Notes: a model not told the origin generated them from the letters alone. DNA of 60,046 bases from Vermamoeba vermiformis (GCA_045837725.1 JBEWZL010000116.1:62001-122046); one strand, 5' to 3'; shown: positions 1,652 through 46,931, counted from the stretch's first letter. Made by a program: numbers and translations.

Positions 1652-1818
1652 AGCTTACTTGATAATGTACTAAGTAATATTATATTGTATTAGTACTTTT
1701 TTGCAATTTTGTAAATAAAATGTGTAGCCATACGGATACAGCCAGTTAAAGATCTTTAACTTGAGTATTTTATATTATTAACATTAAGCAGTTATATCAG
1801 AAATGCTAAAATATGGCA

Positions 1819-4751
1819 TTATTTGGCATCTTTCTTCTTAGGAGGCCATTCCGCGTCGATTCTGATACCAATGTACGTCGGGAAACGAGGAATGCCACCG
1901 TCTGTGAGCTCTTGGTACTTGTACGTGATAATACTGCCGATTGGAGGTGGCTTGGCTCGTTGAGCATCAGTAAATCTGAAAAAAGTAAGTCAATAATTAT
2001 TCGAATTTGTAACGGACTGGATCTGGCTTATATTGACTAATATCAAATTGTATCGCGTGTATCGTATTATTAATGTTATATTAATTATACCCTGAACCAA
2101 CTTGGAATGTCTTCTTATTCGGCATTTCCACGAGCAACGCGCCCATAACGCCCTTGTGTTTGCCTTTACCTGGCAGATGCGCTAGGACTTTAGCCTCATC
2201 GTCACTAAAATACAATATATTAACACGTGTATCGTCATTATAGATAATATGAGTACTTACAAGAAGGTCTTAACCTTGAGCAACGTGTTGGATCTGGATC
2301 CGACGTATTTGGACTTGGGTTGTCGCATCATAACACCTTCACCCTTTTTCTTCTGCACTTCATTTAAGTACTCAAGCATGTGATCATTATCTCGGCATTT
2401 AATATGCTCAATTACTTCAATGTGCGGATGCTTCTTTTTCTGAAAACGGATTTGTTAGAAAAGATCTGAGGAGACATACGATTATGCTATTACTTACATT
2501 AGCGGGATCAAATAGCTTTTTCAATGCACTAACACGCTCTTCGAATGGTTTGTCCATGCCAGGCGCATCAAAGATCTGGATCCGTAAGTTAATCGTGCAC
2601 AATACTTTTTGACCCTGGATCTTACTTTATAAGTCAAAGTTTTCCATCGATCGCCTTGATCTTGACTCTTAACGATGCTAACTGTCGTTTGGAACTTGCC
2701 TCGGCCACCAAAAAGTTCTCCATCCAAACAGACATCGCTCGGAAGTTCAGCTGCGAACCAATCAGGCGCGTAGAAATAATTGCCCAGACGTGAAATAAAC
2801 TTCCTAAAACAACGCAAAACGATTGGTATTAATTAAATAATGACTATTATGAGCGAATTAATGACACGTACTTTCCGTTCCAGTACGCGCGGACGCCATC
2901 CAACTTTTCGCTCATCCACCAACCTGATCCAGAAAAATTAAGTCAAAAAGGTATTACAGGACATTACTAATTATGTATTTAACGGTACCAGTCATGTCCT
3001 GGAACTCGTCCCATTTGTGAGCCAATAACAACTTTGGCGCAGTTGTCTTTTCAACTTTGCCCGGTGAATTGCCTTCACGACCAACACGCCAAGTCTCGAA
3101 TTCATCACCTAGATATTAAAAAAGAATAAGACCTTGCTATCAGATGCAAAAAAGTAAAAAAATCAATGTGCCAACCCCTGGAATTGGACCAGGATTTTTG
3201 GAGCCACAATCCAATGTTCTTCCGTTGAACTAGGTCGGCTGAATTGGAAGGTCGCCCAAGGAACAAAAACGCGTCCTCATAAAGGACAGCATATAGTACT
3301 GTCATCATGTCATATTTGATTCGGCCTCAAGCTTACCCAAATACTCGCGTAAATGTTTGCAAGTACGCTGGTCCGTGGCCAAGTTCTGGAACCTCCATGC
3401 GGTACACGTGCAATAATAGACTCCTCCTCTGTATCGCACATCATACGAGCCGTGACCACCTATAGTAATAACAATGTATTAGCTCGTTGATGTTATTACC
3501 AAGTCCAGATCCGTGTCAAAAAGTTGGTTGTGCACGTGATGCTTTCGACACTGAAAATTCGTTAGAATTGACGTACCTTGTATCTGAATGCTATCTCCGT
3601 CGTTCATATGATGCAGTGGCTTCGGTGCATTCGGATCCACTTCCGCCTCGCCTTCACCTTCCCCTTCGCCCATGACCTCTTCTTCGTTTGAATTTTCCAC
3701 AGCAGCTTCATCGCCAAAACTTGTCTCTTCCTTTTCCCCGTCTTCATCGTCGTTATTATTATTGTTAGTATTGTTGCTAACTTTCTTTGGCCCCGAGGAA
3801 CTTTTGGCTTTCTTCGCTTTGTCCACCAGATCCAGCAAGAAATTTTCGTCCACTACCTTAGTGCCATTAGCTTTAGCCTTATCCAACTTCGAGGTGCCAG
3901 CATTAGGATCTTCAGCGATAAGATAATCAACGTTCTTTGAGACATTGGGCGAGTAATTGCCTCCCAGATCATGCACCATTCGAATGATGTCGTTTCTGAC
4001 CAATGAGAGCTTGCCAGTAAGTGCGACACTCTTTCCTTGAAGAGGCTTAACTGCGTCTAACTCTTCTTCATCGTCATTCTTTTTTGACTCGTCTGCATCC
4101 GATTTTTTTGATTTTTTGGATGCGGATGTAGCAGCAGGTTTTTTTGTCTTCGGAGCCTTCTCTTCAGGTTGCTCGTAATCATCGTCTTTAGTATCCACGA
4201 CTTTTTCTTCTTCCTCTTCGTCGGCTTGCGTTACTTGAGGCTTCGACAGTGAAGGGTGGCTTGTTGGATGTGTGTACTGCTTGAAATGATCGCCATTTTT
4301 TCTATTGCAATTAGCTCCATATTTACAAGGATGCGTTTTTTCGATGAAATGCTGCGGGTTCTTGCGAATACAGCCTGCTCCGTATTGGCACGGATGCGAG
4401 TATTCAGTAAAATGCGTTGGATTTTGGCGATTGCAATTTGATCCATATTTACAAGGGTCGAGTATTTTCTAAAATAATATCATTAAATTAAATACTAATT
4501 TTCGATGCATTTTTCGTAAAAATCTAATTTCGAGTAACGGTCAATTTAAAAAAAACTTGATAATCATCCATCGTGAGCTGAGTAATAAATAATAGCAAAA
4601 TTGCAAAAATATTAACACGAAAAATTACCAATTTACTGTCTTGATTTTGATCTTCGTCGTTGTTAGAACCAGATGCTGATTGCCCTGCAGAGGTCTTTTG
4701 GACCTTCTTCGGTCTTTCATCTTCACTGGTATTTGAGAGTTGTCTCTTCAT
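1819..4751 (-). CDS. ATP-dependent DNA ligase (small bacterial-type catalytic core + OB fold) with N-terminal 3x PBZ zinc fingers, BRCT and SWIM-type zinc finger
   Basis: Multi-exon. Motif I WWMSEKLDGVRAYWNG, LDGELF, IFDAP, EGVMMR, LLKVK, C-terminal ITYKYQELTDGGIPRFPTY. Three CxYGxxCxRxNxxHxxxxxHP repeats at 4265-4453; BRCT LQGKSVALTGKL...GTSKLDKAKANGTKVVDE; YYCTCTAWRFQ...RTCKHL. Confidence 0.9.
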
Positions 4752-5244
4752 CTTGTTAGAAACGAAGGAAAATGAATAAATGCGGTCCAAGCGAAATTTT
4801 AAAAATACGCGGGCACCGCCGTTATTCTTCTTTTGAAAGGCAACCAATGGTTATTCAGTATTATAGTAAAGGACTATATAATTATTAAAACAGGCGCTAC
4901 AAGAATTTTGGGGTTTATTAACATGAAAAACTAATCCGCTGTCGCTTCGTTGCTCGTTATATTGCAAAATTATCGTTGATTTTTCTATCAAATACTAAGA
5001 CTTAACTTCTATTTTGATGAGAGGTGAGATTGAGCAACAAAGACGACAGATCTAATTCACAGAAAAAGTGGGTAATGTACAAAATGGTTATCATTGGGTT
5101 CGTTATTTTTGCCGCTTATGTTTCGCATTATATTTCGATATTATTTCTTCGCAAGACTATTTACAGATTGAGATCTCGGAGATCTTGGCGATATGTCCCT
5201 AACAATCCTTATTAATTAAGTATTAATCCTTGTACTGTGCTAAC

Positions 5245-20059: not shown

Positions 20060-22305
20060 ATGAAACCTCGTGGTAAACCAGTGAAATCAAATCGGGTTGG
20101 ATCGGTTAACCCGTTCGCAGTCCTGGATTCGGATGAGGAAGATCAAATACAGCCCGAGCCCGTTGAAGTGAGTTTCTACATATTTTATATTTTAAATAAT
20201 TGACGATTTCTAAAGGATAACACAAAAGTAGTTTCAGATTCGCCTGTCAACTACGCCATAAGTACGTTCAAAATAATCCAAAAATTGTAATAAAAATTGT
20301 AATATAGAGGACATTCATTGGTCGAGAGATAAGGCAATTTTAGAGCTTAAGAATTTCAACGTTCAAAATATCAAAAAAGATCGGGTTGGTAAGAAATTGC
20401 AACGGTTCATTTTAATATCAATCTGTCCTAAATATATATTAGGCATCTTATATCTTCAATTTGAACGAGAATCTGAAGGTACCAAAGCGCTGGAGTGGAT
20501 GCGCCAAAAACATGGCTTAAAATTTAATGCTACAAAAGTACCGTTGAGAACAGGTAAGTACTTAAAATAATATATTATAACCGTATTGACTATTACTTAT
20601 TAAGATCCCAAGTGTTTTATCTGCCATAAGGACGGTCATTGGGGTCCTAATTGTAAAGAAAGTTTATTGGCATCATTTCCTCACGTAAGTCTAGCGTTAA
20701 TTTTTATCAATTTTATTTCTATTAATTAAATTTACAGGAATTAATCTGTTTAATTGGCTCTTATCTTCATATCTCCGAGCTTTTGCGTTTCAAAAGCGTT
20801 AGAAAATCTTATAATACTGCCATTAAATCTATGAGGTAATATATGATTGAATGTAATATAGTGCGCATATATTAGTACAATTTAAAGATCCCTTACGGTA
20901 CGAAATCCGTTCTACGATGAGTACGATACGCAGTTCATGAAATTGAAGTACAACTTTTTGAAGACTTTTCGGTCATTAGAAGAACTCACATTGCTTAAAA
21001 TTGAAGCTGAACAGCTTGTCAATGCCGAGTTTAATACGATAGACTTCATTACACAATGCAAATCGTTGAGGAGTCTGACGCTTCGGTCGCGCGAGTCGAT
21101 GGATCCGCAACTCCTGTCGAAGATTTTTTCATTGACAGCGTTAACAAGATTGATAGTAATTGGTTGTTCAATGCAACAGCAGCTAAGCCAGTTAACAAAT
21201 TTGACGGATCTGGGCTTGTCGGTCACTACTGACGATCCGTTCGATGACACTTTAGATATGCAATTGACCCGTTTGCCTGCGCTAAAAAGATTAGAGTAAG
21301 TGTTATAAGCAATAATATAATACTATACTAATATATTTCATATTCAGATTGAAAATTTTTTATCGTTGGGATGAAGTAGCGCGATTAGTTTTGTCAGCTG
21401 AAAATTTGACACGATTGGTGGCACTTAAAACACGTGGCTTTAGGCACGGAATAGTCTTTGGTGCAGAAATGAACAGACTAGAAGAATTGGATACTGGTTA
21501 CATACGCGAATGGTACCCTCTTATTGCTCCAAATCTGACGCGATTGGTCTGTAAAGTATGTCCAAAGATTAATGACAGCATCAACGACTTTGTCAAATTG
21601 AAGCACCTGACATTAGGCTTGGGACCTGACAAAGAGGTCTTTTTGACACGTCTGGCATTGCCTAATTTGGAAACTCTAAAACTTTCGAGATGGATCTCGG
21701 ATGTGGATGTCAGCGGATGCACAAACTTGAAAAATTTAGTAGTGGAAGCGTTGGACGTGTTCATACTACAAGTGCCTCCAAGTATTACAGATGTGACAAT
21801 CAACCCTTGTCATGCTGCACCACAGACTTTAAAAGCAATAAGCGAACTTCCTTCACTGAAACACCTTAAAATTAGCCAATCATTTACCCCCGACGATGAC
21901 ATTAAAGTTTTGGCCCAAATTACGTCGCTACAAACATTAACGTTTAATCGTCCGTACACTGCGCACGAAGGGTTTATGGATAGTCTGGCACGATTCACAC
22001 AAGTTAAAGTCTTGGATCTGGTACACCAACGTTACTGGCAGAAAAATTATTACAACGAAAAAGCAGTGCTTCTTATCTTAAAATTATCGGAAAAACTGCC
22101 TCACACGAGAATATTACACGGCGTGCAATTCTATCATGACACTCTGTTACCAACTGGTTGTAAAAAATTCAACGAGTATTGCGGCTGTCCAAGGTGCTTG
22201 CAGGCTCGACAGCGTCAAAAAGAATTAGCGGAAGACAAAAAAATCGATAAAAACGAGCCCGACGTCCATTTGCCTGCAAAATTCAACAAGTTTTGGTACA
22301 CGTAA
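20060..22305 (+). CDS. RRM-like + CCHC zinc knuckle + F-box + leucine-rich repeat protein
   Basis: Spliced N-terminus includes GILYLQFE (RNP1-like), CFICHKDGHWGPNC (20613-20654) and LASFPH|ELICLIGSYLHISELLRFKSV (F-box), followed by many LxxLxxLxL repeats. Confidence 0.75.
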
Positions 22306-34200: not shown

Positions 34201-37200
34201 ATGGGCAACGGGTCACAAGTAATATTACTGACCTTGAAGAACTTGAAGATCAAGGGCCGAAACGGATGCGGCACTGCAGTTGAGGCCATCTTTCCCTTGC
34301 TCTGCCTTGTATTCTTAATATCTATATTCGTCGTTAGCACTTCGAGCGCTGACAACGATCCAATCTTTGGTCCAATCCCGATCTACTCTGGAGAATCCAC
34401 GCGAGCGATCGCCTACGGACCAAACATCGACTTGGTTCGGAAATTGATGCTACCAGTCGTTGATGGACGAGAAGATCTTCTATATCCTATTGATACCAAT
34501 GAAGAAATGACACAAACGTTAAAGTTCGACTGCGTTCAATCGAGCCGCTGGTAAGTTTTGTTGCTTTTATATAGGCTCCGTATTAATTCGGTACGTTAAT
34601 AGGCGTATTTTTCCGTTTGAGTCCAGAAGATATTGCTGCTGGTGTCTTACCCGATGATGTCACCTACGCCATTAGATTCCTCGGCAAAGACGTTCCTAAT
34701 CCCTTAACTACCATTGACTACACGGCCAATTCCAACAATTCTCCGAACTTACGTTACATATCATTCGTCGCACTGCAACAAAAGATCGATCAAAGCGTCA
34801 TGGCACTCAAGATTTCGGAGAAAACAGGAGTGAGTTCCAGCGTCAGCATGTCCGCATCAGCAACGCGCTTTCCAGTCCAAGAAGGTGAACCAAACTTTGA
34901 CTCGAGATGGCAACAACGCAACTTGATTCTCAAACCTCTTGGTGGTACTTGGCTGACATTCGGTATTCTGTTCTCTGTGTATCGATTGGTCAACACTGTG
35001 TTGGTTGAAAAGAAAACAAAAGTGCGTGACTCGATGAGAATGATGGGCATGCGAGTAAGTTGCACATAATTTCTTTGCTATGGGTACTCATTCTAACGCA
35101 TATTCTTAGAACGAATTCTATTGGTTGACGTGGCTAGTGGTGTCATTGGTCATCATTTTGCCCGCGCTAGTGATTTGCTCGATACTTCTCAAGTTCCTCA
35201 ACTTCTTCCCTCTGACTCCTATTGGTATTATTTTCATCACTTGGTTCCTTTACGCGGCCACTTTGATCGCCGTTGCAATGATTTTCTCGTCATTTTTGAA
35301 CTCCGCAAAGGTGCGGATAGCGTTCTTACTTGCGTTAACTAACTTGTACTAATGGTCATATTCAGAGCTCTGCTATTCTCACCATGTTGACTGTAATTGT
35401 GTTCAGCATCGCAGGAGAACTCGTGGCCATGGCACCAGTCATTCCAGGTGTCAAGATCTTGCTGTCGCTGTTCAGTCCCTTCGCGTTCAACAACATAATC
35501 AATATCCTCGCTGAAGCTGAGAATCTCAGAATAACTATGGATTACGAACACTCAACAGGTACGTTCCGATGAAACTTTAAAGGGTTGATTAACTCATATT
35601 AAATTGACAGTTTCTATCGCTGAATATCTTCCTTCACTATACTCGATGATCGCTATGCTCGTTTGTGATATCGTGCTGTATCTGTTGATCGCCTGGTACA
35701 TTGATAACGTCAAGACAAGTGGCTCGAGGAACCGCGGATGCTTTTGCTTCCGTGCATCTTATTGGGGCAAGCAGCGAAGTGTTGCCACCAACGAAGAAAG
35801 TCTTGAGGATTACGTCGCAACTGAAGGAGATTTCGAGAAAGTTGACGAACTGGGCAATCCAGTTGTGAGAGTCAAAAGACTTCGCAAGACGTTTGACATT
35901 AACGGAAAAACTTTCGTGGCTGTTGACGGCTTCAAGTTGGACCTGTTCGAGAATCAAATTGTTTCCTTATTAGGTAACACTGCAAATACAATACCAAGTA
36001 ACGAGAATCCTGTACTAAGAATCGTTTTGAAGGTCACAACGGAGCAGGCAAAACAACACTGATCTCAATGCTGACTGGCAGTTTCGCACCGACCTCAGGT
36101 GACGCAGAGTTCTACGGCAACAGTCTCACAAAAGATCTGAGTGCGTTGAAGAAGATTGTTGGTATTTGTCCTCAATACGATGCAATCTGGCCTCAACTGA
36201 CAGTTTACGAACACTTGCAACTCTTTGCTGGCTTCAAAGGTACGATCGAATCATCGATTGCCAAATAAGGAAATTGTCTCGTATTAACACGAATACTTAC
36301 CAGGAGTGAAATTCGGAGATATCAAAACAGAAGCAGATCAACTGATCAAAGACTTTGAGCTCGAAGACAAACGCAACTATCCTGCTGGCAAGCTGTCTGG
36401 TGGTCAAAAGAGAAAGCTATCGATTGCCATCGCACTGATTGGAGGATCCAAAGTTGTATTTCTTGATGAACCATCGAGTGGCATGGATCCTGAAGCACGA
36501 AGAACTGTTTGGGACAATTTGACTCGTTACAAAGCTGGTCGTGTCATCATTTTGACGAGTAAGTCGTACTCATTCACAAAAACAGGACTAATCATGACTT
36601 CAGCACATTTCATGGATGAAGCAGATTATCTCGGTGATCGCATTGCCATCATGAGACACGGAAAGCTTCTTTGTGCAGGCTCATCGTTGTTCTTGAAGAA
36701 CAGATTCGGTCTCGGATACACTCTTGGTTGTGTAGTCCACCACTTTGAAAAATCATTTTTACTCACGTTTATTGTTGGTTTCAGGTCAAAGCACCCAAAT
36801 GTCAAGTCGAATCAGTTTCTGAGTTCTTGAATGAACTCTCACCCAATATTCAAATGCTTTCGAATGCAGGTGCTGAGGTCATTTTCAGAGTGCCACGTGA
36901 AAGTTTTGAAGATTTGCCTCAACTCTTGACGGCGATCGAATCCAGCAAAGATGAATTGGGCATCACATCATACGGTGTTGGCCAATCAACACTTGAAGAA
37001 GTATTTTTGGAACTCAACAACGACTCGACACAAGATCAAGGTCTGGACGTCAATCTGAAAGACACAGTGTTCATTCCTGGCTCAAAACGTCCTTCAAAGA
37101 GGCGTCAATTGGAGGCACTGCTCAGAAAGAGATTACGATTCGCTCAACGTGACGGAAAGTTCTTGTTCATTCAGTTCGCAGTGCCCATCATTTTGTGTCT

Positions 37201-39852
37201 CGTTGCTTTCATCGTTCAAACTTTTGTCTTTGCTCCGAACAACGTTGTCGATGCCCAAATAGCATTTGACGGAAAGACTTATGGTATGTTTAAACACATT
37301 ACAATACTTCAAATACGTTCTAATTGCTGTTCTCCACATGTTTTAGACGCGTATCTTTCACCTTGGTCCGACGCCGGGTGTGCAACAAACTTGTTCTCTG
37401 CATTGCCGTTCTACACTTCTGAAAGATTCCCAGAGATTTCGCAGTCAGATCTATCGTCACTGCTTGCCAACATCGACACATTTGCAGCAGGTGCAGTGAT
37501 CAATTCTCAGTGCTCATCAGCTTCGAATGCGTACACTCTCGAGTACTCCTTGATGTACAACGCATCGATACCTCACTCATTGCCTTATCATCAAAATTTG
37601 GTCTCGAATGCATTGCTCAACACGGTGTTGGGAAACTCAAGTCGAGTGTCAATCACCACAATCAATCAACCTGCTGGTACGTTCGACGACACTGCTCGGG
37701 TCAACAGTTTGAACTAATGTTGTTATAGGTGCTGGCATTGACCTCGTAAACAATCTGATCAACATTATCATCTATTTGCTGATTCTTCTCGGTTCAAGTG
37801 TGTTGACAGCATCAGCAGCAGCGTACATCTTCCAAGAACGAGAACTTGGTGTCAAACAATTGCAACTTGCGAGTGGTACGAACGCGAAGATCTATTGGTT
37901 GTCGAACTTCATTTGGGACTTTGTGTTGCACATGATCATCTTCATCGTCATCTTGATCATTGCCAACGCTGTCAGTTGGTCAACATTTGGTGGTGTAAGA
38001 GTTGGTGCCGAGCTCATCTTGATCATCTTCTACAGCTTGTCATCAGTTTGTATTGCTTATTTCTTCTCTTTCGTCTTCTCCGGACCCGGATCTGGCATCG
38101 GATCTCTACTTGGTCTTTTCATCGGTGTTGGCTTTGGCTTCTTAGCCATGGTCAACGCCATATCTGCGGCGGCTAATGATGCCACCGACGCAGTCTCGGC
38201 ATTGGGATACGTGTTCAAAGCCATCAGGTAAACCAAGTGCGTTAATGTCAGCCCAACGCTAACGACCTCTTTTACAGCCCTCATTATTTACTCCTCTCGT
38301 CTTTGGGACAGCTGTCAAATAGCTTCGGAAGTGATCCATTGAACCCTGTTGACGCAAACACGAACATCTTTGGAATGTAAGTTCGCTTGACATTTTTTTA
38401 TGACACTTTGACACCTTCGACTAACTGTCGTTATTTAATAGTAACTTCTGGGGTTCATCTTACATCATATTTGTCGGTCAATCCTTAATCTATGGAGGCT
38501 TCACATTGTTGTTTGAAGAATACACACAACTCCGATTGAAGAGAAACACAAGTGCGAACAACACACTTCGCGATGCTGATGAAGACGATGACGTGGCCAA
38601 AGAACGCGACCTTGTTGATGGCGCTAATGCCACCGACAGAGAGAGCAATTTGGTGTGGGTCAGAGGTCTTCGCAAAGAATTCAATGCGAAGAAAAAGATC
38701 CACAAAGTTGCAGTGCACAACTTCTCACTTCACATTCCTCGTGGTGAGAGCTTCGGTCTCTTGGGTGCAAACGGTGCTGGTATGGTTATTAATGATTACA
38801 AGTACAATAGTGGCACGTGTCTAACCATTGATCGATGATTCATAGGCAAGACAACAACACTGAAAATGTTGTCAGGACAACTTCTTCCATCACGTGGTGA
38901 AGTGAGTATCAACGGCAACACGTACCAACAACTCAATGGCATTCTTCAATCGATTGGCTTCTGTCCTCAATTCGACTCAGTCATTCCAAAACTGAGTGGT
39001 CGTGCTCACTTGGAGTTGTTTGCCGAACTCAGAGGTACGATCGAGATAACTATCACGTGTAACTTTTTTAACTTGTGACTGCACAGGTCTTCCAAAAGAC
39101 AAAGTGCCTTCAATCGTTGACGCACTGATCAAAATGATCAACTTGACAAAGTACGCAGACAGACCTTGTGGCAAGTACAGTGGTGGCAACAAACGCAAAC
39201 TGTCCTTGGCACTTGCTTTAATCGGTGAGCATTACTACTTGGACGAACCATCGACAGGCATGGATCCACTTGCACGCAGATTCATGTGGAACTTGATCAT
39301 GGCAGTGCGCTCGAACAAAGCAGTCATCTTGACAACACACAGCATGGAAGAGTGCGAAGCATTGTGCACTCGTGTGGGCATCATGATCAGTGTAAGTTTT
39401 CGATGAGTTACGTCAAATTCACAAAATAGTTTATTTCCTTATTTGGAAATGTGATTGATTGATCGTAATCACGATGATTTTGATCGTTATTGACACGTGG
39501 TTTATCGATACAGGGAAAACTCCAATGTGTTGGCAGTCCTCAACATTTGAAGACCAAATTTGGCAATGGTTATCGTTTGGAACTCAAGACTGACATGCAA
39601 CACATTGACGACATTCCAAAGTTCATTTCGCAACTTGCCAAAGATGCCAAACTGATCGACAATCACACAACAATGTTCAGTTACGAGATACCGATGCACA
39701 ACTTGACACTTGGCTCGTTGTTGGAACGCGTTGAAAGTGTGAAAAACAAACTTGCCATCAGCGACTATTCAGTGAGTCAAACGAGTTTGGAACATATCTT
39801 CATCACCATGGCTCAAGAATGCGCACAGCCAAAGATCGTTATCGAAAGTTAA
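34201..39852 (+). pseudogene. ABCA: ABCA-subfamily full transporter, copy 1; carries a 5-nt frameshifting deletion in exon 1 and a 65-bp deletion before NBD2 Walker B (pseudogene or assembly lesion)
   Basis: TMD1-NBD1-TMD2-NBD2. [58 protein letters not shown] tails. Exon 1 is 350 nt vs 355 nt in copy 2. Confidence 0.75.
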
Positions 39853-41251: not shown

Positions 41252-44200
41252 TTATTTTTCAATAACGATCTTTGGCTGCGCGCATTCTTGAGCCATGGTG
41301 ATGAAGATCTGTTCCAAACTCGTTTGACTCACTGAATAGTCGCTGATGGCAAGTTTGTTTTTCACACTTTCAACGCGTTCCAACAGCGAGCCAAGTGTCA
41401 AATTGTGCATCGGTATCTCGTAACTGAACATTGTCGTGTGATTGTCGATCAGTTTGGCATCTTTGGCGAGTTGTGAAATGAACTTTGGAATGTCGTCAAT
41501 GTGTTGCATGTCAGTCTTGAGCTCCAAACGATAACCATTGCCAAATTTGGTCTTCAAATGTTGAGGACTGCCAACACATTGGAGTTTTCCCTGTATCGAT
41601 AAACCACGTGTCAATAACGATCAAAATCATTGTGACTGCGATCGGTCAATAACATTTCCAAATAAGGAAATAAACTAGTTTTGATGTAACTCATCAATGA
41701 CTTACACTGATCATGATACCAACACGAGTGCACAATGCTTCACACTCTTCCATGCTGTGCGTTGTCAAGATGACTGCTTTGTTCAAGCGCACTGCCATGA
41801 TCAAGTTCCACATGAATCTGCGTGCAAGTGGATCCATGCCTGTCGATGGTTCGTCCAAGTACAGAACTGGCGGATTACCTGCATATATCGAACGTTAGTT
41901 ATTGTCTTGTGATTGAATATGACTCAGTAATGCTCACCAATTAAAGCAAGTGCCAAGGACAATTTGCGTTTGTTGCCACCACTGTACTTGCCACAAGGTC
42001 TGTCTGCGTACTTTGTCAAGTTGATCATTTTGATCAGTGCGTCAACGATTGAGGGCACTTTGTCTTTTGGAAGACCTGTACAATCACGAGTTAAATAAAG
42101 TAACACGATCAATAACTCTTCATACCTCTGAGTTCAGCAAACAACTCCAAGTGAGCGCGACCACTCAGTTTTGGAATGACTGAATCGAATTGAGGACAGA
42201 AGCCAATCGATTGAAGAATGCCATTGAGTTGTTGGTACGTGTTGCCGTTGATACTCACTTCACCACGTGATGGAAGAAGTTGTCCTGACAACATTTTCAG
42301 CGTTGTTGTCTTGCCTATGAACGCTGATCGTTAGAAACGTCGTACTTCTAATCAATCGTAACTAGTGTAATCACTAGCAACCATACCAGCACCGTTTGCA
42401 CCCAACAAACCGAAACTTTCACCACGAGGAATGTGAAGTGAGAAGTTGTGCACTGCAACTTTGTGGATCTTTTTCTTCGCATTGAACTCTTTGCGAAGAC
42501 CTCTGACCCACACCAAGTTGCTCTCTCTGTCAGTGGCGTTAGCGCCATCAACAATGTCGCGCTCTTTGGCCACGTCGTCGTCTTCATCAGCATCGCGAAG
42601 TGAGTTGTTCGCACTTGTGTTTCGCTTCAATCGGAGTTGTGTGTATTCTTCAAACAATAATGTGAAGCCTCCATAGATTAAGGATTGACCGACAAATATA
42701 ATGTACGAAGCACCCCAGAAGTTACTAGAACGTGTCAGCGACGTGTCAAAAATGTCAAACGAACTTACATTCCGAAGATGTTCGTGTTTGCATCAACAGG
42801 ATTCAACGGATCACTTCCGAAGCCGTTTGACAGCTGTCCCAGAGACGAGAGAAGCAAATAATGAGGGCTATAAAAGAGATCGTTAATAGCTGTTGAGACT
42901 GGGCATCGATCAGCGTACCTGATAACTTTGAAAATGTAACCCAACGCCAAGACCGCTGTTGTCCCATCCGTGGCAGTGGCTCCGATTGCGTTGATTGCTG
43001 CCAAGGCCCCGAATCCTGCACCAACGAAGAGGCCAACAAGCGATCCGATGCCAGCTCCAGGACTAGAGAACACGAAGGAGAAAAAATAAGCAATAGAAAC
43101 TGATGCCAAGCTGTAGAAGATGATCAAGATGAGCTCGGCACCAACTCGTACACCACCAAAGGTTGACCAGCTGACGGCACTAGCTAAGAACATTATGACG
43201 ATGAAGATGATCATGTGCAACACAAAGTCCCAAATGAAGTTCGACAACCAATAGATCTTCGCGTTCGTACCACTCGCAAGTTGCAGTTGTTTGACACCAA
43301 GTTCTCGTTCTTGGAAGATGTACGCTGCTGCTGATGCTGTCAACACACTTGAACCGAGAAGAATCAGCAAATAGATGATAATGTTGATCAGATTGTTTAC
43401 GAGGACGATACCAGCGCCTGCATTAAGACAATTAGTTCACGTGAGTAGGGTGAATTCGTCGAACGTACCAGCAGGTTGATTGATTGTGGTGATTGACACT
43501 CTGCTTGAGTTTCCCAATGCTGTGTTGAGCAATGCATTCGAGATCAAGTTTTGATGATAAGGCAATGAGTGAGGTATCGATGCGTTGTACATCAAGGAGT
43601 ACTCGAGAGTGTACGTATTCGCAGCAGATGAGCACTGAGAATTGATCACTGCACCTGCTGCAAATGTGTCGATGTTGGCAAGCAGTGACGATAGATCTGA
43701 CTGCGAAATCTCTGGGAATCTTTCAGAAGTGTAGAACGGTAGTGCAGAGAACAAGTTTGTTGCGCAACCGGCATCAGACCAAGGTGAAAGATACGAGTCT
43801 AAAATAAGATAGAAGTTAGTCAAGCGACCATAAAAGGAAATAATAAGTATCGGATTACCGTAGGTCGTTCCGTTGAACGCAATCTCGGCGTCGGGATTGT
43901 TCGGAGAAAACACGAAAGTTTGAACGATGAATGCAACGAGACACAAAATGATGGGCACTGCGAACTGAATGAACAAGAACTTGCCGTCACGTTGAGCGAA
44001 CAGCAGTCGTTTTTTGAGAAGTGCATTGAGCTGACGTCTCTTTGAAGGGTGTTTTGAGCCAGGAATGAACACTGTGTCTTTCAGATTGACGTCGAGACCT
44101 TGATCTTGAGTTGAGTCGTTGTTGAGTTCCAAAAATACTTCTTCAAGTGTTGATTGGCCAACACCGTATGATGTGATGCCCAGTTCGTCTTTACTGGATT

Positions 44201-46931
44201 CGATCGCTGTTAAAATCTGCGGCAACCGTTCAAAACTTTCACGTGGCACTCTGAAAATGACTTCAGCACCTGCATTTGAAAGCATTTGAATATTGGGCGA
44301 GAGTTCATTCAAGAACTCAGAAACTGATTCGACTTGACATTTGGGTGCTTTGACCTGAAACCAACAATAACGTGAGTAAATATCATTTTCGAGAGTTAAA
44401 GTGATTGACTTACACAACCAAGAGTGTATCCGAGACCGAATCTGTTCTTCAAGAACAACGATGAGCCGGCACAAAGAAGCTTTCCATGTCTCATGATGGC
44501 AATGCGATCACCGAGATAGTCTGCTTCATCCATGAAATGTGCTGGAGTACCGATTAGTCACTGTATTTGTGAAGCAAATGAGTGCGACTTACTCGTCAAA
44601 ATGATGACACGACCAGCTTTGTAACGAGTCAAATTGTCCCAAACAGTTCTTCGTGCTTCAGGATCCATGCCACTCGATGGTTCGTCAAGGAATACAACCT
44701 TGGATCCTCCAATCAGTGCGATGGCAATCGATAGCTTTCTCTTTTGACCGCCAGACAGCTTGCCAGCAGGATAGTTGCGTTTGTCTTCGAGCTCAAAGTC
44801 TTTGATCAGTTGATCTGCTTCTGCTTTGATATCTCCGAATTTCACTCCTGGTAAGTATTCGTGTTAAAACGACACTATTTCCTTGTTTGGCAATCGATGA
44901 TTCGATCGTACCTTTGAATCCAGCAAAGAGTTGCAAGTGTTCGTAAACTGTCAGTTGAGGCCAGATTGCATCGTATTGAGGACAAACACCAACAATCTTC
45001 TTCAACGCACTCAAATCTTTTGTAAGACTGTTGCCGTAGAACTCTGCGTCACCTGATGTCGGTGCCAAACTGCCAGTCAGCATTGAGATCAGTGTTGTTT
45101 TGCCTGCTCCGTTGTGACCTTCAAAACGATTCTTTAGTAAAGTCTCGCTACTTCGTATTTGCAGTATTACCTAATAAGGAAACAATTTGATTCTCGTACA
45201 AGTCCAACTTGAAGCCATCCACAGCCACGAAAGTTTTTCCGTTGATGTCAAACGTCTTGCGAAGTCTTTTGACTTTCACAACTGGATTGCCCAACTCGTC
45301 AACTTTCTCGAAATCTCCTTCAGTCGGGACGTACTCGTCAAGTCTTTCTTCGTTATTGGTTGAAAAGTTCGTTTGCTTGCCCCAATAAGATTTGCGGAAG
45401 CAAAAACATCCACGGTTCTTTGAGCCACTTGTCTTGACATTGTCAATATACCAAGCAATCAACAGATAAAGCACCAAGTCGCAAACGAGCATTGAGATCA
45501 TTGCGTGCAATGAAGGAAGCCATTCGGTAATAGATACTACGGAGATTATTAGAATGGACGAAACGCGTTTTGATCGTACCTGTTGAGTGTTCATAATCCA
45601 TGGTGATTCTGAGATTCTCAGCTTCAGCGAGGATATTGATAATGTTGTTGAACGCGAAGGGACTGAATAGCGACAATAAGATCTTGACACCTGGAATGAC
45701 AGGTGCCATGGCCACGAGTTCTCCTGCGATGCTGAAGATGATTAGAGTCAACATAGCGAGAATACCGGAGCTCTAAATTAACCAGGATTAGTACGTTGAG
45801 TTTTACGACAAATATTGCGTACCTTCGCAGAGTTTAAGAACGACGACAAGATCATCGCAAATGCGATCAACGTGGCAGCGTAGAGGAACCAACTAATGAA
45901 CGAGATGCCAATAGGAGTCAGAGGGAAGAAGTTGAAGAGCTTGAGAACCACGGAGCACGCAACTAACGCTGGCAAAATGATGACCAATGACACCACGAAC
46001 CAAGTCAACCAATAGAATTCGTTCTAAGAATAGGCATTAGAATGAGCTCAGGGAAAAAATTATGTGCAACTTACTCGCATGCCCATCATTCTCATCGAGT
46101 CACGCACTTTTGTTTTCTTTTCGACCAACACAGTGTTGACCAATCGGTACACAGAGAACAGAATACCGAATGTCAGCCAAGTACCACCAAGAGGTTTAAG
46201 AATCAAGTTGCGTTGTTGCCATCTCGAGTCAAAGTTTGGTTCACCTTCTTGGATTGGAAAGCGCGTTGCTGATGCGGACATGCTGACGCTGGAACTCACT
46301 CCTGTTTTCTCCGAAATTTTGAGTGCCATGATGCTTTGATCGATCTTTTGTTGAAGTGCGACGAATGAGATGTATATTAAGTTGGGAGATTTGTTCGCGT
46401 TGGCCGTGTAGTCAATTAGCTTCGTCGGATCTGTAATGTTTTGACCAAGGATGCGAATAGCGTACGTAATGTCATCGGATAAGGCGCCAGTAGCTATCTC
46501 CTCCGGATTTAACCGGAAAAATACACCTATAATGGATAATTAGATTTGAGACCGTAGTAAAAGACTTTTAGCTTACCAGCAGCCAAGTTCAATGCTCCCG
46601 AACTTGTGATCAATGTGCGAGTCATTTCTTCATTCGTATCAATAGGATATAGAAGATCTTCTCGTCCATCAACGACCGGTAGCATAATATTACGAACCAA
46701 GTCGATGTTTGGTCCGTACGCGATCGCTTTTGTAGGATCTGGCCGAGAGATCGGGATTGGACCAAAGATCGGATCATCGTCTGCACCTGATGTACTAACA
46801 ATAAATATAGTCATTAAGAAGATTAGACAGATCAGGGGAAAGATGGCTTCCATCGCAGTGCCGCATCTGTTTCGGCCCTTGATCTTCAAGTTCTTCAAGG
46901 TCAGTAATAATACTTGTGACCCGTTGCCCAT
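41252..46931 (-). CDS. ABCA: ABCA-subfamily full transporter, copy 2 (no lesion found in the junctions checked)
   Basis: Same domain motifs and intron positions as copy 1. Exon 1 phase matches exon 2; canonical [13 protein letters not shown] before NBD2 Walker B. Confidence 0.9.

Follow-up and report, generated by a model that had tools for sequence, protein, structure and literature searches.

The window analysed here, a 60,046-nucleotide stretch of Vermamoeba vermiformis DNA (GCA_045837725.1 JBEWZL010000116.1:62001-122046), carries on its minus strand a ten-exon gene coding for an ATP-dependent DNA ligase in which three PBZ fingers, a BRCT domain and a CxC..CxH zinc finger precede a minimal catalytic core made of a nucleotidyltransferase (NTase) and an OB_2 domain. 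We consider it likely that the locus encodes one 671-residue eukaryotic zinc-finger-NTase-OB_2 ligase acting as a self-targeting repair enzyme, comparable to the Ligase E of bdelloid rotifers and Mortierella, which bears PBZ fingers and is induced by radiation. Such an enzyme would seal nicks or breaks in nuclear DNA through the three-step adenylyl transfer; the conserved finger beside the core would provide DNA contacts absent from the minimal core, the BRCT domain would bind DNA ends or nicks (5'-phosphate) or phospho/poly(ADP-ribose) ligands, and the PBZ array would tether the ligase to the poly(ADP-ribose) (PAR) made at breaks. The catalytic part of this proposal is secure by homology, and PAR-guided recruitment by the PBZ array is putative.

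Gene structure and spliced message

Joining the exons by coordinate from the minus-strand reading of 1700-4900 gave a 2016-base frame of 671 codons with a single, terminal stop, which opens with the ATG at 4751 and closes with the TAA at 1821-1819 (Table 1). All nine introns are of the GT..AG type and measure 160, 117, 228, 65, 68, 50, 58, 56 and 115 nt. An earlier reading made from the DNA alone (hereafter the sequence-only reading) had delimited the gene as 1819-4751, which is exactly the distance from stop to start codon on this strand. A 26-nt 'intron' within exon 2 (3576-3551) was dismissed: it is too short, a stop follows its acceptor, and RNA shows the 117-nt intron.

Table 1. Exons and encoded domains of the ligase gene, with positions counted on the window and residues on the spliced protein
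Feature	Position	Strand	Codons or residues	Content
Exon 1	4629..4751	-	codons 1-41	ATG 4751-4749, first ATG in the open frame; hydrophilic N-terminus with a basic PKKVQK stretch
Exon 2	3577..4468	-	codons 42-338 and first base of 339	three PBZ, mixed acidic/basic linker, BRCT, acidic low-complexity linker
Exon 3	3337..3459	-	codons 339-380, partly	SWIM-type zinc-finger exon
Exon 4	2989..3108	-		linker from finger to nucleotidyltransferase domain; ends ..LLLAHKWDEFQDMTG
Exon 5	2872..2923	-		motif I (WWMSEKLDGVRAYW); adenylated lysine K426 at 2904-2906
Exon 6	2626..2803	-		nucleotidyltransferase domain; motif III LDGEL (D464, G465, E466)
Exon 7	2498..2575	-		motif IIIa IFDAP (F498, D499)
Exon 8	2261..2439	-		motifs IV (EGVMMR) and V (LLKVK; K577, K579); PF01068
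Exon 9	2091..2204	-		OB_2 domain, first half; PF14743
Exon 10	1819..1975	-		OB_2 domain, second half; motif VI PRFP (R650, F651, P652); stop TAA 1821-1819
Three abutting PBZ (C2H2) fingers	4268..4453	-	residues 47-108	PF10283
BRCT, RFC1/LigA/PARP1 class	3827..4051	-	residues about 181-255	PF00533
CxC-x14-CxH signature	3353..3412	-	residues 355-374	C355, C357, C372, H374; found by motif search

Evidence of splicing comes from four sequencing runs compared with the locus (X1, X3, X11 and X13), none of which is indexed as RNA; X1 and X3 are spliced contigs, and X11 and X13 are raw RNA-seq reads of an organism 90-95% similar. Eight of the nine introns (1, 2 and 4-9) are exactly spliced out in X1 and/or X3 contigs, reading CT..AC on the plus strand. 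The joint of intron 1, 4468/4629 (160 nt skipped), is found in contigs of both X1 and X3, and that of intron 2, 3459/3577 (117 nt skipped), in X1, record 3 of which fuses 3575-3799 of the PBZ/BRCT exon to 3349-3457 of the finger exon. Intron 3 is the one whose joint appears only in reads of the similar relative (two in X11, ten in X13), with five differing letters at the junction, and is consistent but inexact. X1 has the joint between exons 4 and 5, which X11 and X13 show displaced by a few bases; 2803/2872 occurs in X1, X11 and X13, 2575/2626 in all four runs, and 2439/2498, 2204/2261 and 1975/2091 each in X1 and X3. From this chain of junctions, the gene is transcribed and spliced as a single message. 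The sequence-only reading had named RNA joining the PBZ/BRCT exons to the ligase exons as a check on the proposed fusion, and the exon 2-exon 3 joint of X1 record 3 answers it; both the fusion and the order of the domains were read correctly.

In the X11 and X13 reads, which cover window positions 2235-3110, the ligase-core exons are well covered and the PBZ/BRCT exon hardly at all, and some junctions are slightly displaced, as at 2439/2499 with one extra letter. The sparse coverage of exon 2 is probably due to its faster divergence in the relative; a different 5' structure of the gene in that organism is also conceivable.

A Lig E-like core and the zinc finger before it

Pfam was run on the separate translations of nine exons, exon 5 with its 16 codons being too short. 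The final part of the ligase adenylation domain (PF01068) matched exon 8 alone (E 1.6e-7) and PF14743 both exon 9 (E 7.3e-9) and exon 10 (E 1.7e-16); PF04679 and PF04675 gave no match at E ≤ 1 on these nine translations. The stretch EKLDGVRAYW contains the motif I lysine K426. When ten core sequences were compared, 62 of their 66 invariant columns were found to be retained in the window's protein, the four departures being G>K554, L>V558, E>V568 and G>K612. Each of the 18 motif residues that were checked is in place: K426, D428, G429, R431, D464-E466, F498, D499, E556, G557, M559, R561, K577 and K579, together with R650, F651 and P652 of motif VI. Because these residues and nearly all invariant columns are retained, K426 included, the protein looks like an active enzyme.

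The type of core was judged through two relatives, P0048 and P0243, and not on the spliced protein itself. Searched against PDB sequences, P0048 (Aphanomyces astaci) matched Lig E best (4d05, 1.6e-55; 8u6x, 2.3e-53; 6gdr, 1.3e-41), and no human Lig1, Lig3 or Lig4 chain stood among the matches listed at E ≤ 0.01. The closest relative found, P0243, is a transcript of 351 residues from the transcriptome of Amoeba proteus, with 63% identity over residues 329-665. Its AlphaFold model, based on a 123-sequence alignment (predicted local distance difference test, pLDDT, 93.5), retrieved the same three Lig E structures at the top of a Foldseek search (8u6x, 4d05 and 6gdr, at about 1e-27; template modelling score 0.91 on target for 6gdr), whereas human Lig1, Lig3 and Lig4 came at about 1e-12 with 18-20% identity. 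Judged by the sequence of one relative and the predicted fold of the other, the core is Lig E-like, of the small bacterial type, and not Lig1/3/4-like. The sequence-only reading had proposed just such a minimal core around EKLDGVRAYW, and of the profiles that it had listed for checking, PF10283, PF00533, PF01068 and PF14743 all matched.

The zinc finger that precedes the core was likewise anticipated, as CxC...CKH, and is present at the expected place. Across an alignment of 60 relatives, each of its four ligands is either invariant or conserved to at least 90%. Among 209 family proteins with 60 or more residues ahead of the core, 184 have the finger. To these can be added a scan of prokaryotes, with one genome per species, which confirmed at least 586 relatives; the best 80 loci were kept. 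The finger stands in frame directly before the core, as C[ST]CPAWRNQ..R[ST]CKH, in 74 of these 80 bacterial loci, including complete genomes of Myxococcus, Archangium and Cystobacter. The idea that the finger is a eukaryotic addition is wrong, since the same finger precedes the core in bacteria; as far as these comparisons reach, it belongs with this core as a conserved, integral neighbour in bacteria and eukaryotes alike.

The finger has the CxCxnCxH signature of the SWIM family. Its assignment to that family did not hold at the level of the profile, as PF04434 scored 14 bits on exon 3 alone, against a cut-off of 19.6 (E 0.037). The same profile was absent in 20 relatives searched at E ≤ 0.01 and in 10 more at E ≤ 0.001. 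Many relatives are named 'SWIM-type domain-containing protein' by their source databases, a label that presumably rests on another profile. A literature search combining SWIM with ATP-dependent DNA ligases returned nothing relevant, and the word 'SWIM' occurs in neither main text of the two papers that deal with this ligase group (PMC10665377, PMC6264785), whose figures or supplements may show it.

Putative targeting domains and competing explanations

On the translation of exon 2, PF10283 matched three stretches with 88.5 bits against a cut-off of 22.7 (E 2.5e-25); the motifs of the three PBZ units lie at residues 47-66, 68-87 and 89-108, with a period of 21 residues. The sequence-only reading was right about three abutting 21-residue repeats, and the acidic linkers that it had described are visible in the same translation. 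The nearest solved sequences are the tandem PBZ of APLF (2kuo, 1.4e-9; 2kqb, 1.6e-9), and all three fingers retain the Cys/His zinc ligands, the first aromatic residue (C-x-Y-G) and the arginine. Counting PBZ motifs by pattern gave 16 of 136 proteins with a strict definition and 18 with a relaxed one; these figures are below the Pfam counts and are samples, not a census. Of the domains ahead of the core, the PBZ fingers alone look like a eukaryotic addition to the ligase.

The BRCT domain is also supported (PF00533, E 1.1e-16, 61.2 bits against a cut-off of 21.3). The E-values of these domain matches are well outside what chance would give. Its best PDB matches are RFC1 (2ebu, 2.9e-9; 2k6g, 9.1e-9), followed by LigA (1l7b, 1.2e-5; 2owo, 2e-5) and PARP1 (2le0, 2e-3), in agreement with the LigA/RFC1 type that had been suggested for it. 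The BRCT domains of RFC1 and LigA are binders of DNA ends or nicks, and because that of the window's protein is closest to them, the analogy suggests direct DNA recognition.

Several points weigh against a self-targeting repair ligase guided by PAR. First, APLF has C-Y-R where the three fingers have C-N-R, C-I-R and C-N-R, and in other Lig E-core proteins each of the 22 PBZ motifs found has this second tyrosine; in APLF it corresponds to Y386/Y428, described as critical for the adenine contact (PMC6264785). Second, the texts found report no PAR binding for any Ligase E, and the main text of the most pertinent of them (PMC10665377) contains neither 'olaparib' nor 'truncat' and speaks of PARP only as a co-induced protein. 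Third, the part given to the finger in DNA binding is pure inference, and for 60 relatives searched at E ≤ 0.1, PF04434 does not figure in the 25 listed of the 39 families found. Fourth, the nuclear location is inferred from the domain types and the basic N-terminal stretch only. Finally, one contig or read spanning all ten exons was never met with in X1, X3, X11 or X13.

The first of these points bears on an alternative that we judge unlikely, yet the most serious of those considered, namely that the ligase is the same but its PBZ array reads another ligand (mono-ADP-ribose, DNA or RNA, or a partner protein), with the BRCT domain and the finger directing it to breaks. The loss of the second APLF tyrosine from all three fingers would fit this, as would a BRCT domain nearest to DNA-binding ones and the bacterial relatives described below, in which the same finger and core are combined with the PARP-associated, break-sensing WGR domain and with no PAR reader. 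Against it stand the strong PBZ score, the intact zinc ligands, first aromatic residue and arginine, and the finding that a residue other than tyrosine, mostly threonine, occupies that position in 33 of the 79 PBZ-like motifs of other proteins retrieved with exon 2. Tandem PBZ arrays are moreover typical of PAR readers, according to a passage on APLF (PMC6264785).

Far less probable is an organellar or replicative ligase, comparable to the Ligase K enzymes of kinetoplastid mitochondria, which have the same PF01068 plus PF14743 core. Ligase K has been tied to the present lineage (PMC10665377, PMC6264785), and four euglenozoan sequences fall in the tree group of the window's protein (see below); PBZ and BRCT are nevertheless modules of the nuclear damage response, the N-terminus is hydrophilic, acidic/basic and devoid of a presequence evident by eye, and the PBZ-bearing relative AvLigE-B is nuclear (PMC10665377). 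That the locus is an annotation artefact or a dead gene, two neighbours misjoined or a decaying horizontally acquired copy, is scarcely credible and largely refuted: the incomplete spanning of the exons and the far lower depth of the relative's RNA on exon 2 than on the core exons would speak for it, but spliced sequence backs every junction including exon 2-exon 3, the frame is open over its whole length with canonical splice sites, 62 of 66 invariant residues are intact, many species have collinear full-length relatives, and low X11/X13 depth is expected if a fast-evolving exon 2 falls under the 90% likeness cut-off. A self-targeting repair ligase remains our preferred explanation of the locus.

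Relatives, origin and place in the ligase family

A word-indexed homologue search with exon 2 among longer proteins gave 4548 candidates, none at E ≤ 1e-5, a result that reflects a limit of sensitivity and is no proof of absence; an exhaustive HMMER search with the same exon gave 1290 proteins at E ≤ 0.001. Of the best 150 of these matches, 11 also carry the ligase core, P0048 being one of them, and 9 the finger region, as found by local search with the window's core. The ligase family has many members, 7624 of the 8000 proteins scored falling at E ≤ 1e-10, and includes Basidiomycota, chytrids, molluscs, Capsaspora, choanoflagellates and oomycetes. Among the 120 best relatives of P0026, itself a collinear relative, 13 combine PBZ, BRCT and core; every one of the 13 has the finger, and the order PBZ, BRCT, core is kept in 8 of the 10 that were scanned with Pfam. 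Among the 13 are proteins of amoebae (Pelomyxa schiedti, Mastigamoeba balamuthi, Mastigella eilhardi, Protostelium nocturnum), of the choanoflagellates Choanoeca flexa and Salpingoeca infusionum, of the chiton Liolophura sinensis and of the fungus Jimgerdemannia flammicorona; a protist transcript from MMETSP (P0293), also among them, reproduces the layout of the window's protein, with three PBZ, one BRCT, the finger and the core. Given P0293 and these relatives in many species, we take the 3xPBZ-BRCT-finger-core layout to be recurrent and not unique. Other arrangements exist: the Protostelium nocturnum transcript P0321 has an FHA_2 domain, one PBZ, the finger and core, and a C-terminal BRCT, and P0288 begins with a CUE domain. 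To judge from such layouts, the family varies greatly at its targeting end.

The bacterial loci belong mostly to Myxococcota and Planctomycetota, and also to Acidobacteriota, Melainabacteria/Cyanobacteria and Verrucomicrobiota. Half of them (40 of 80) have at least 80 residues beyond the core. Proteins of bacterial type made of finger and core, often with a WGR domain, include P0223, P0264, P0225, P0242, P0277 and P0280. In the seven scanned bacterial or unnamed proteins that have a C-terminal tail, the tail is WGR; P0242 carries an additional SnoaL-like/DUF4440 domain, and P0280, from a bacterial metagenome-assembled genome, reads BRCT-finger-core-WGR. WGR is a domain found in PARP enzymes, with a direct role in sensing breaks. 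From these WGR tails and the layout of P0280, it seems that bacteria, too, equip this core with a break-sensing end.

Two quick, unrooted maximum-likelihood trees were built, with support from the Shimodaira-Hasegawa-like approximate likelihood ratio test (SH-aLRT) only. The first used 101 of 156 full-core sequences, the unnamed ones being dropped except for 25 that were chosen; the second had 75 rows, with Basidiomycota thinned to 11 and molluscs to 7, partial sequences excluded, and bacteria represented by 21 of the 80 loci and 3 named proteins. The window's protein pairs with the Amoeba proteus transcript in both (support 93 and 91). Four euglenozoan and three saprolegnialean oomycete sequences complete the starred group of nine to which the pair belongs in the second tree. 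In that tree, 49 of the 51 eukaryotic rows, including the window's protein, are on one side of a single branch (SH-aLRT 93), the other side holding all 24 bacterial rows with Capsaspora and Protostelium. Oomycetes appear in two places, the Peronosporales near Jimgerdemannia and Allomyces and the Saprolegniales near the window's protein. This division, like the placement of Capsaspora and Protostelium, suggests paralogy, transfers among eukaryotes or tree error. One transfer between bacteria and eukaryotes or several, in either direction, would be compatible with these unrooted trees, which have no outgroup such as classical Lig E, Lig K or the Chlorella virus ligase. The sequence-only reading of a horizontally acquired ligase rebuilt with PAR readers is only partly sustained: the core is of bacterial type and a role in repair is likely, whereas the finger was already part of the bacterial module, and P0280 has a BRCT domain ahead of finger and core and a WGR tail behind them.

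The class to which the protein belongs is already in print, and the claim that its architecture is new was not upheld, the layout having also been found in other species. Hecox-Lea and Mark Welch (2018) named the lineage 'Ligase K' and described it as present throughout bacteria and in many fungi and sporadic in protists and animals, usually with the core C-terminal and PBZ fingers on its N-terminal side; domain models were drawn for Salpingoeca rosetta, Capitella, Lottia, Aplysia, Rhizophagus and others (PMC6264785). Nicolas et al. (2023) renamed it Ligase E and argued for horizontal acquisition; their rotifer enzyme AvLigE-B is a radiation-induced, nuclear, active ligase that raises the radio-tolerance of human cells, and N-terminal PBZ fingers are reported for three other animals (PMC10665377). 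The word 'BRCT' is absent from the main text of the latter paper and appears in that of the former only for Pol lambda, though figures or supplements may show it. When the literature was searched for Ligase E, PBZ and ADP-ribose in later years, the 2023 paper (PMC10665377) was the sole result.

The core of the window's protein groups with eukaryotic members and has PBZ fingers fused to it, the features of eukaryotic PBZ-bearing Ligase E, or 'Ligase K'. With AvLigE-A, AvLigE-B and MvLigE of bdelloid rotifers and Mortierella it has in common a PF01068 plus PF14743 core of bacterial affinity, an intron-bearing eukaryotic gene, fused PBZ fingers and a proposed role in damage repair. The arrangement differs, as the characterised enzymes are described with the core first and one or two PBZ at the C-terminus, in proline-, serine- and threonine-rich repeats, whereas three PBZ and a BRCT precede the core here. 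The protein is not a close relative of the examples named in the two papers (PMC10665377, PMC6264785), its nearest relative found being the Amoeba proteus transcript with 63% identity. Its nearest bacterial relatives in the trees are the finger-NT-OB_2(-WGR) ligases, which share the CxC..CxH finger before the core and the WW[MIV]SEKLD context of motif I; unlike the window's protein, they have no PBZ and no introns, and often a WGR tail. A cluster of NT-OB_2-WGR ligases had previously been linked to 'mostly fungal' eukaryotic enzymes (Williamson and Leiros 2020, PMC7470946).

With the classical Lig E of Proteobacteria (Psychromonas 4d05, Neisseria gonorrhoeae 8u6x, Alteromonas 6gdr) the common ground is the minimal NTase plus OB_2 fold. 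Those enzymes are described as periplasm-targeted and, in the texts found, free of appended domains, whereas the window's protein has finger, BRCT and PBZ, and its hydrophilic N-terminus is not signal-peptide-like by eye and is followed by these three elements. The likeness to XRCC1-Lig3 and to APLF would be one of function only, that is, delivery of a ligase to breaks through PAR or a BRCT domain. The PBZ array is most like the tandem PBZ of APLF, and the protein is a member of neither the APLF nor the XRCC1-Lig3 family: no Lig3-type zinc finger, DNA-binding domain (PF04675) or OB domain (PF04679) was found in the gene's exon translations, and the core is of another lineage.

Other genes of the window have no part in this argument. 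At 52553-54982 on the plus strand, an uninterrupted frame of 809 codons matches DUF4962 (E 3.3e-19) and a heparinase II/III-like C-terminal domain (E 2.1e-15). It is intronless amid an intron-rich region and coincides with the GC-richest bin (0.473 at 52001-54000, against 0.35-0.45 in the others); this gene may be of bacterial origin. Exons of two ABCA-type transporter genes lie on opposite strands at 36749-37717 (plus) and 42765-44507 (minus), with R1_ABCA1 at E 4e-4 and 2e-4, both below the cut-off, and ABC2_membrane_3 at E 4.3e-20. A frame of 329 codons at 21316-22305 (plus) contains leucine-rich repeats (LRR_Zer-1, 30.1 bits; LRR_4, 28 bits).

The locus does not represent a new kind of system, as a bacterial-type ligase with PAR-binding fingers was published in 2018 and again in 2023. 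With it, eukaryotic Ligase E gains a member that is well supported, expressed and split by introns, and whose targeting end, with three PBZ and an RFC1/LigA-type BRCT, is fuller than in the characterised rotifer and Mortierella enzymes. Two features may interest specialists of ligases and PARP: the conserved finger, apparently undiscussed in the literature found, and the change of targeting domains from one lineage to another (WGR in bacteria; PBZ, BRCT or FHA in eukaryotes), by which the family becomes a natural experiment in aiming a minimal ligase at breaks. A wider proposal can be offered only tentatively, and we hold it to be possible but doubtful: the finger-NT-OB_2 ligases might form an old, largely overlooked fourth lineage of eukaryotic DNA ligases, acquired once together with the finger from, or shared with, Myxococcota/Planctomycetota-like bacteria, the finger being the DNA-binding domain that the core otherwise lacks. 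The targeting end would have been rebuilt repeatedly, with WGR in bacteria and PBZ, BRCT or FHA in amoebae, choanoflagellates, molluscs, fungi, oomycetes and euglenozoans, and the Vermamoeba form would be among the fullest readers of PAR plus DNA ends, able to do the job of XRCC1-Lig3 where Lig3 is absent.

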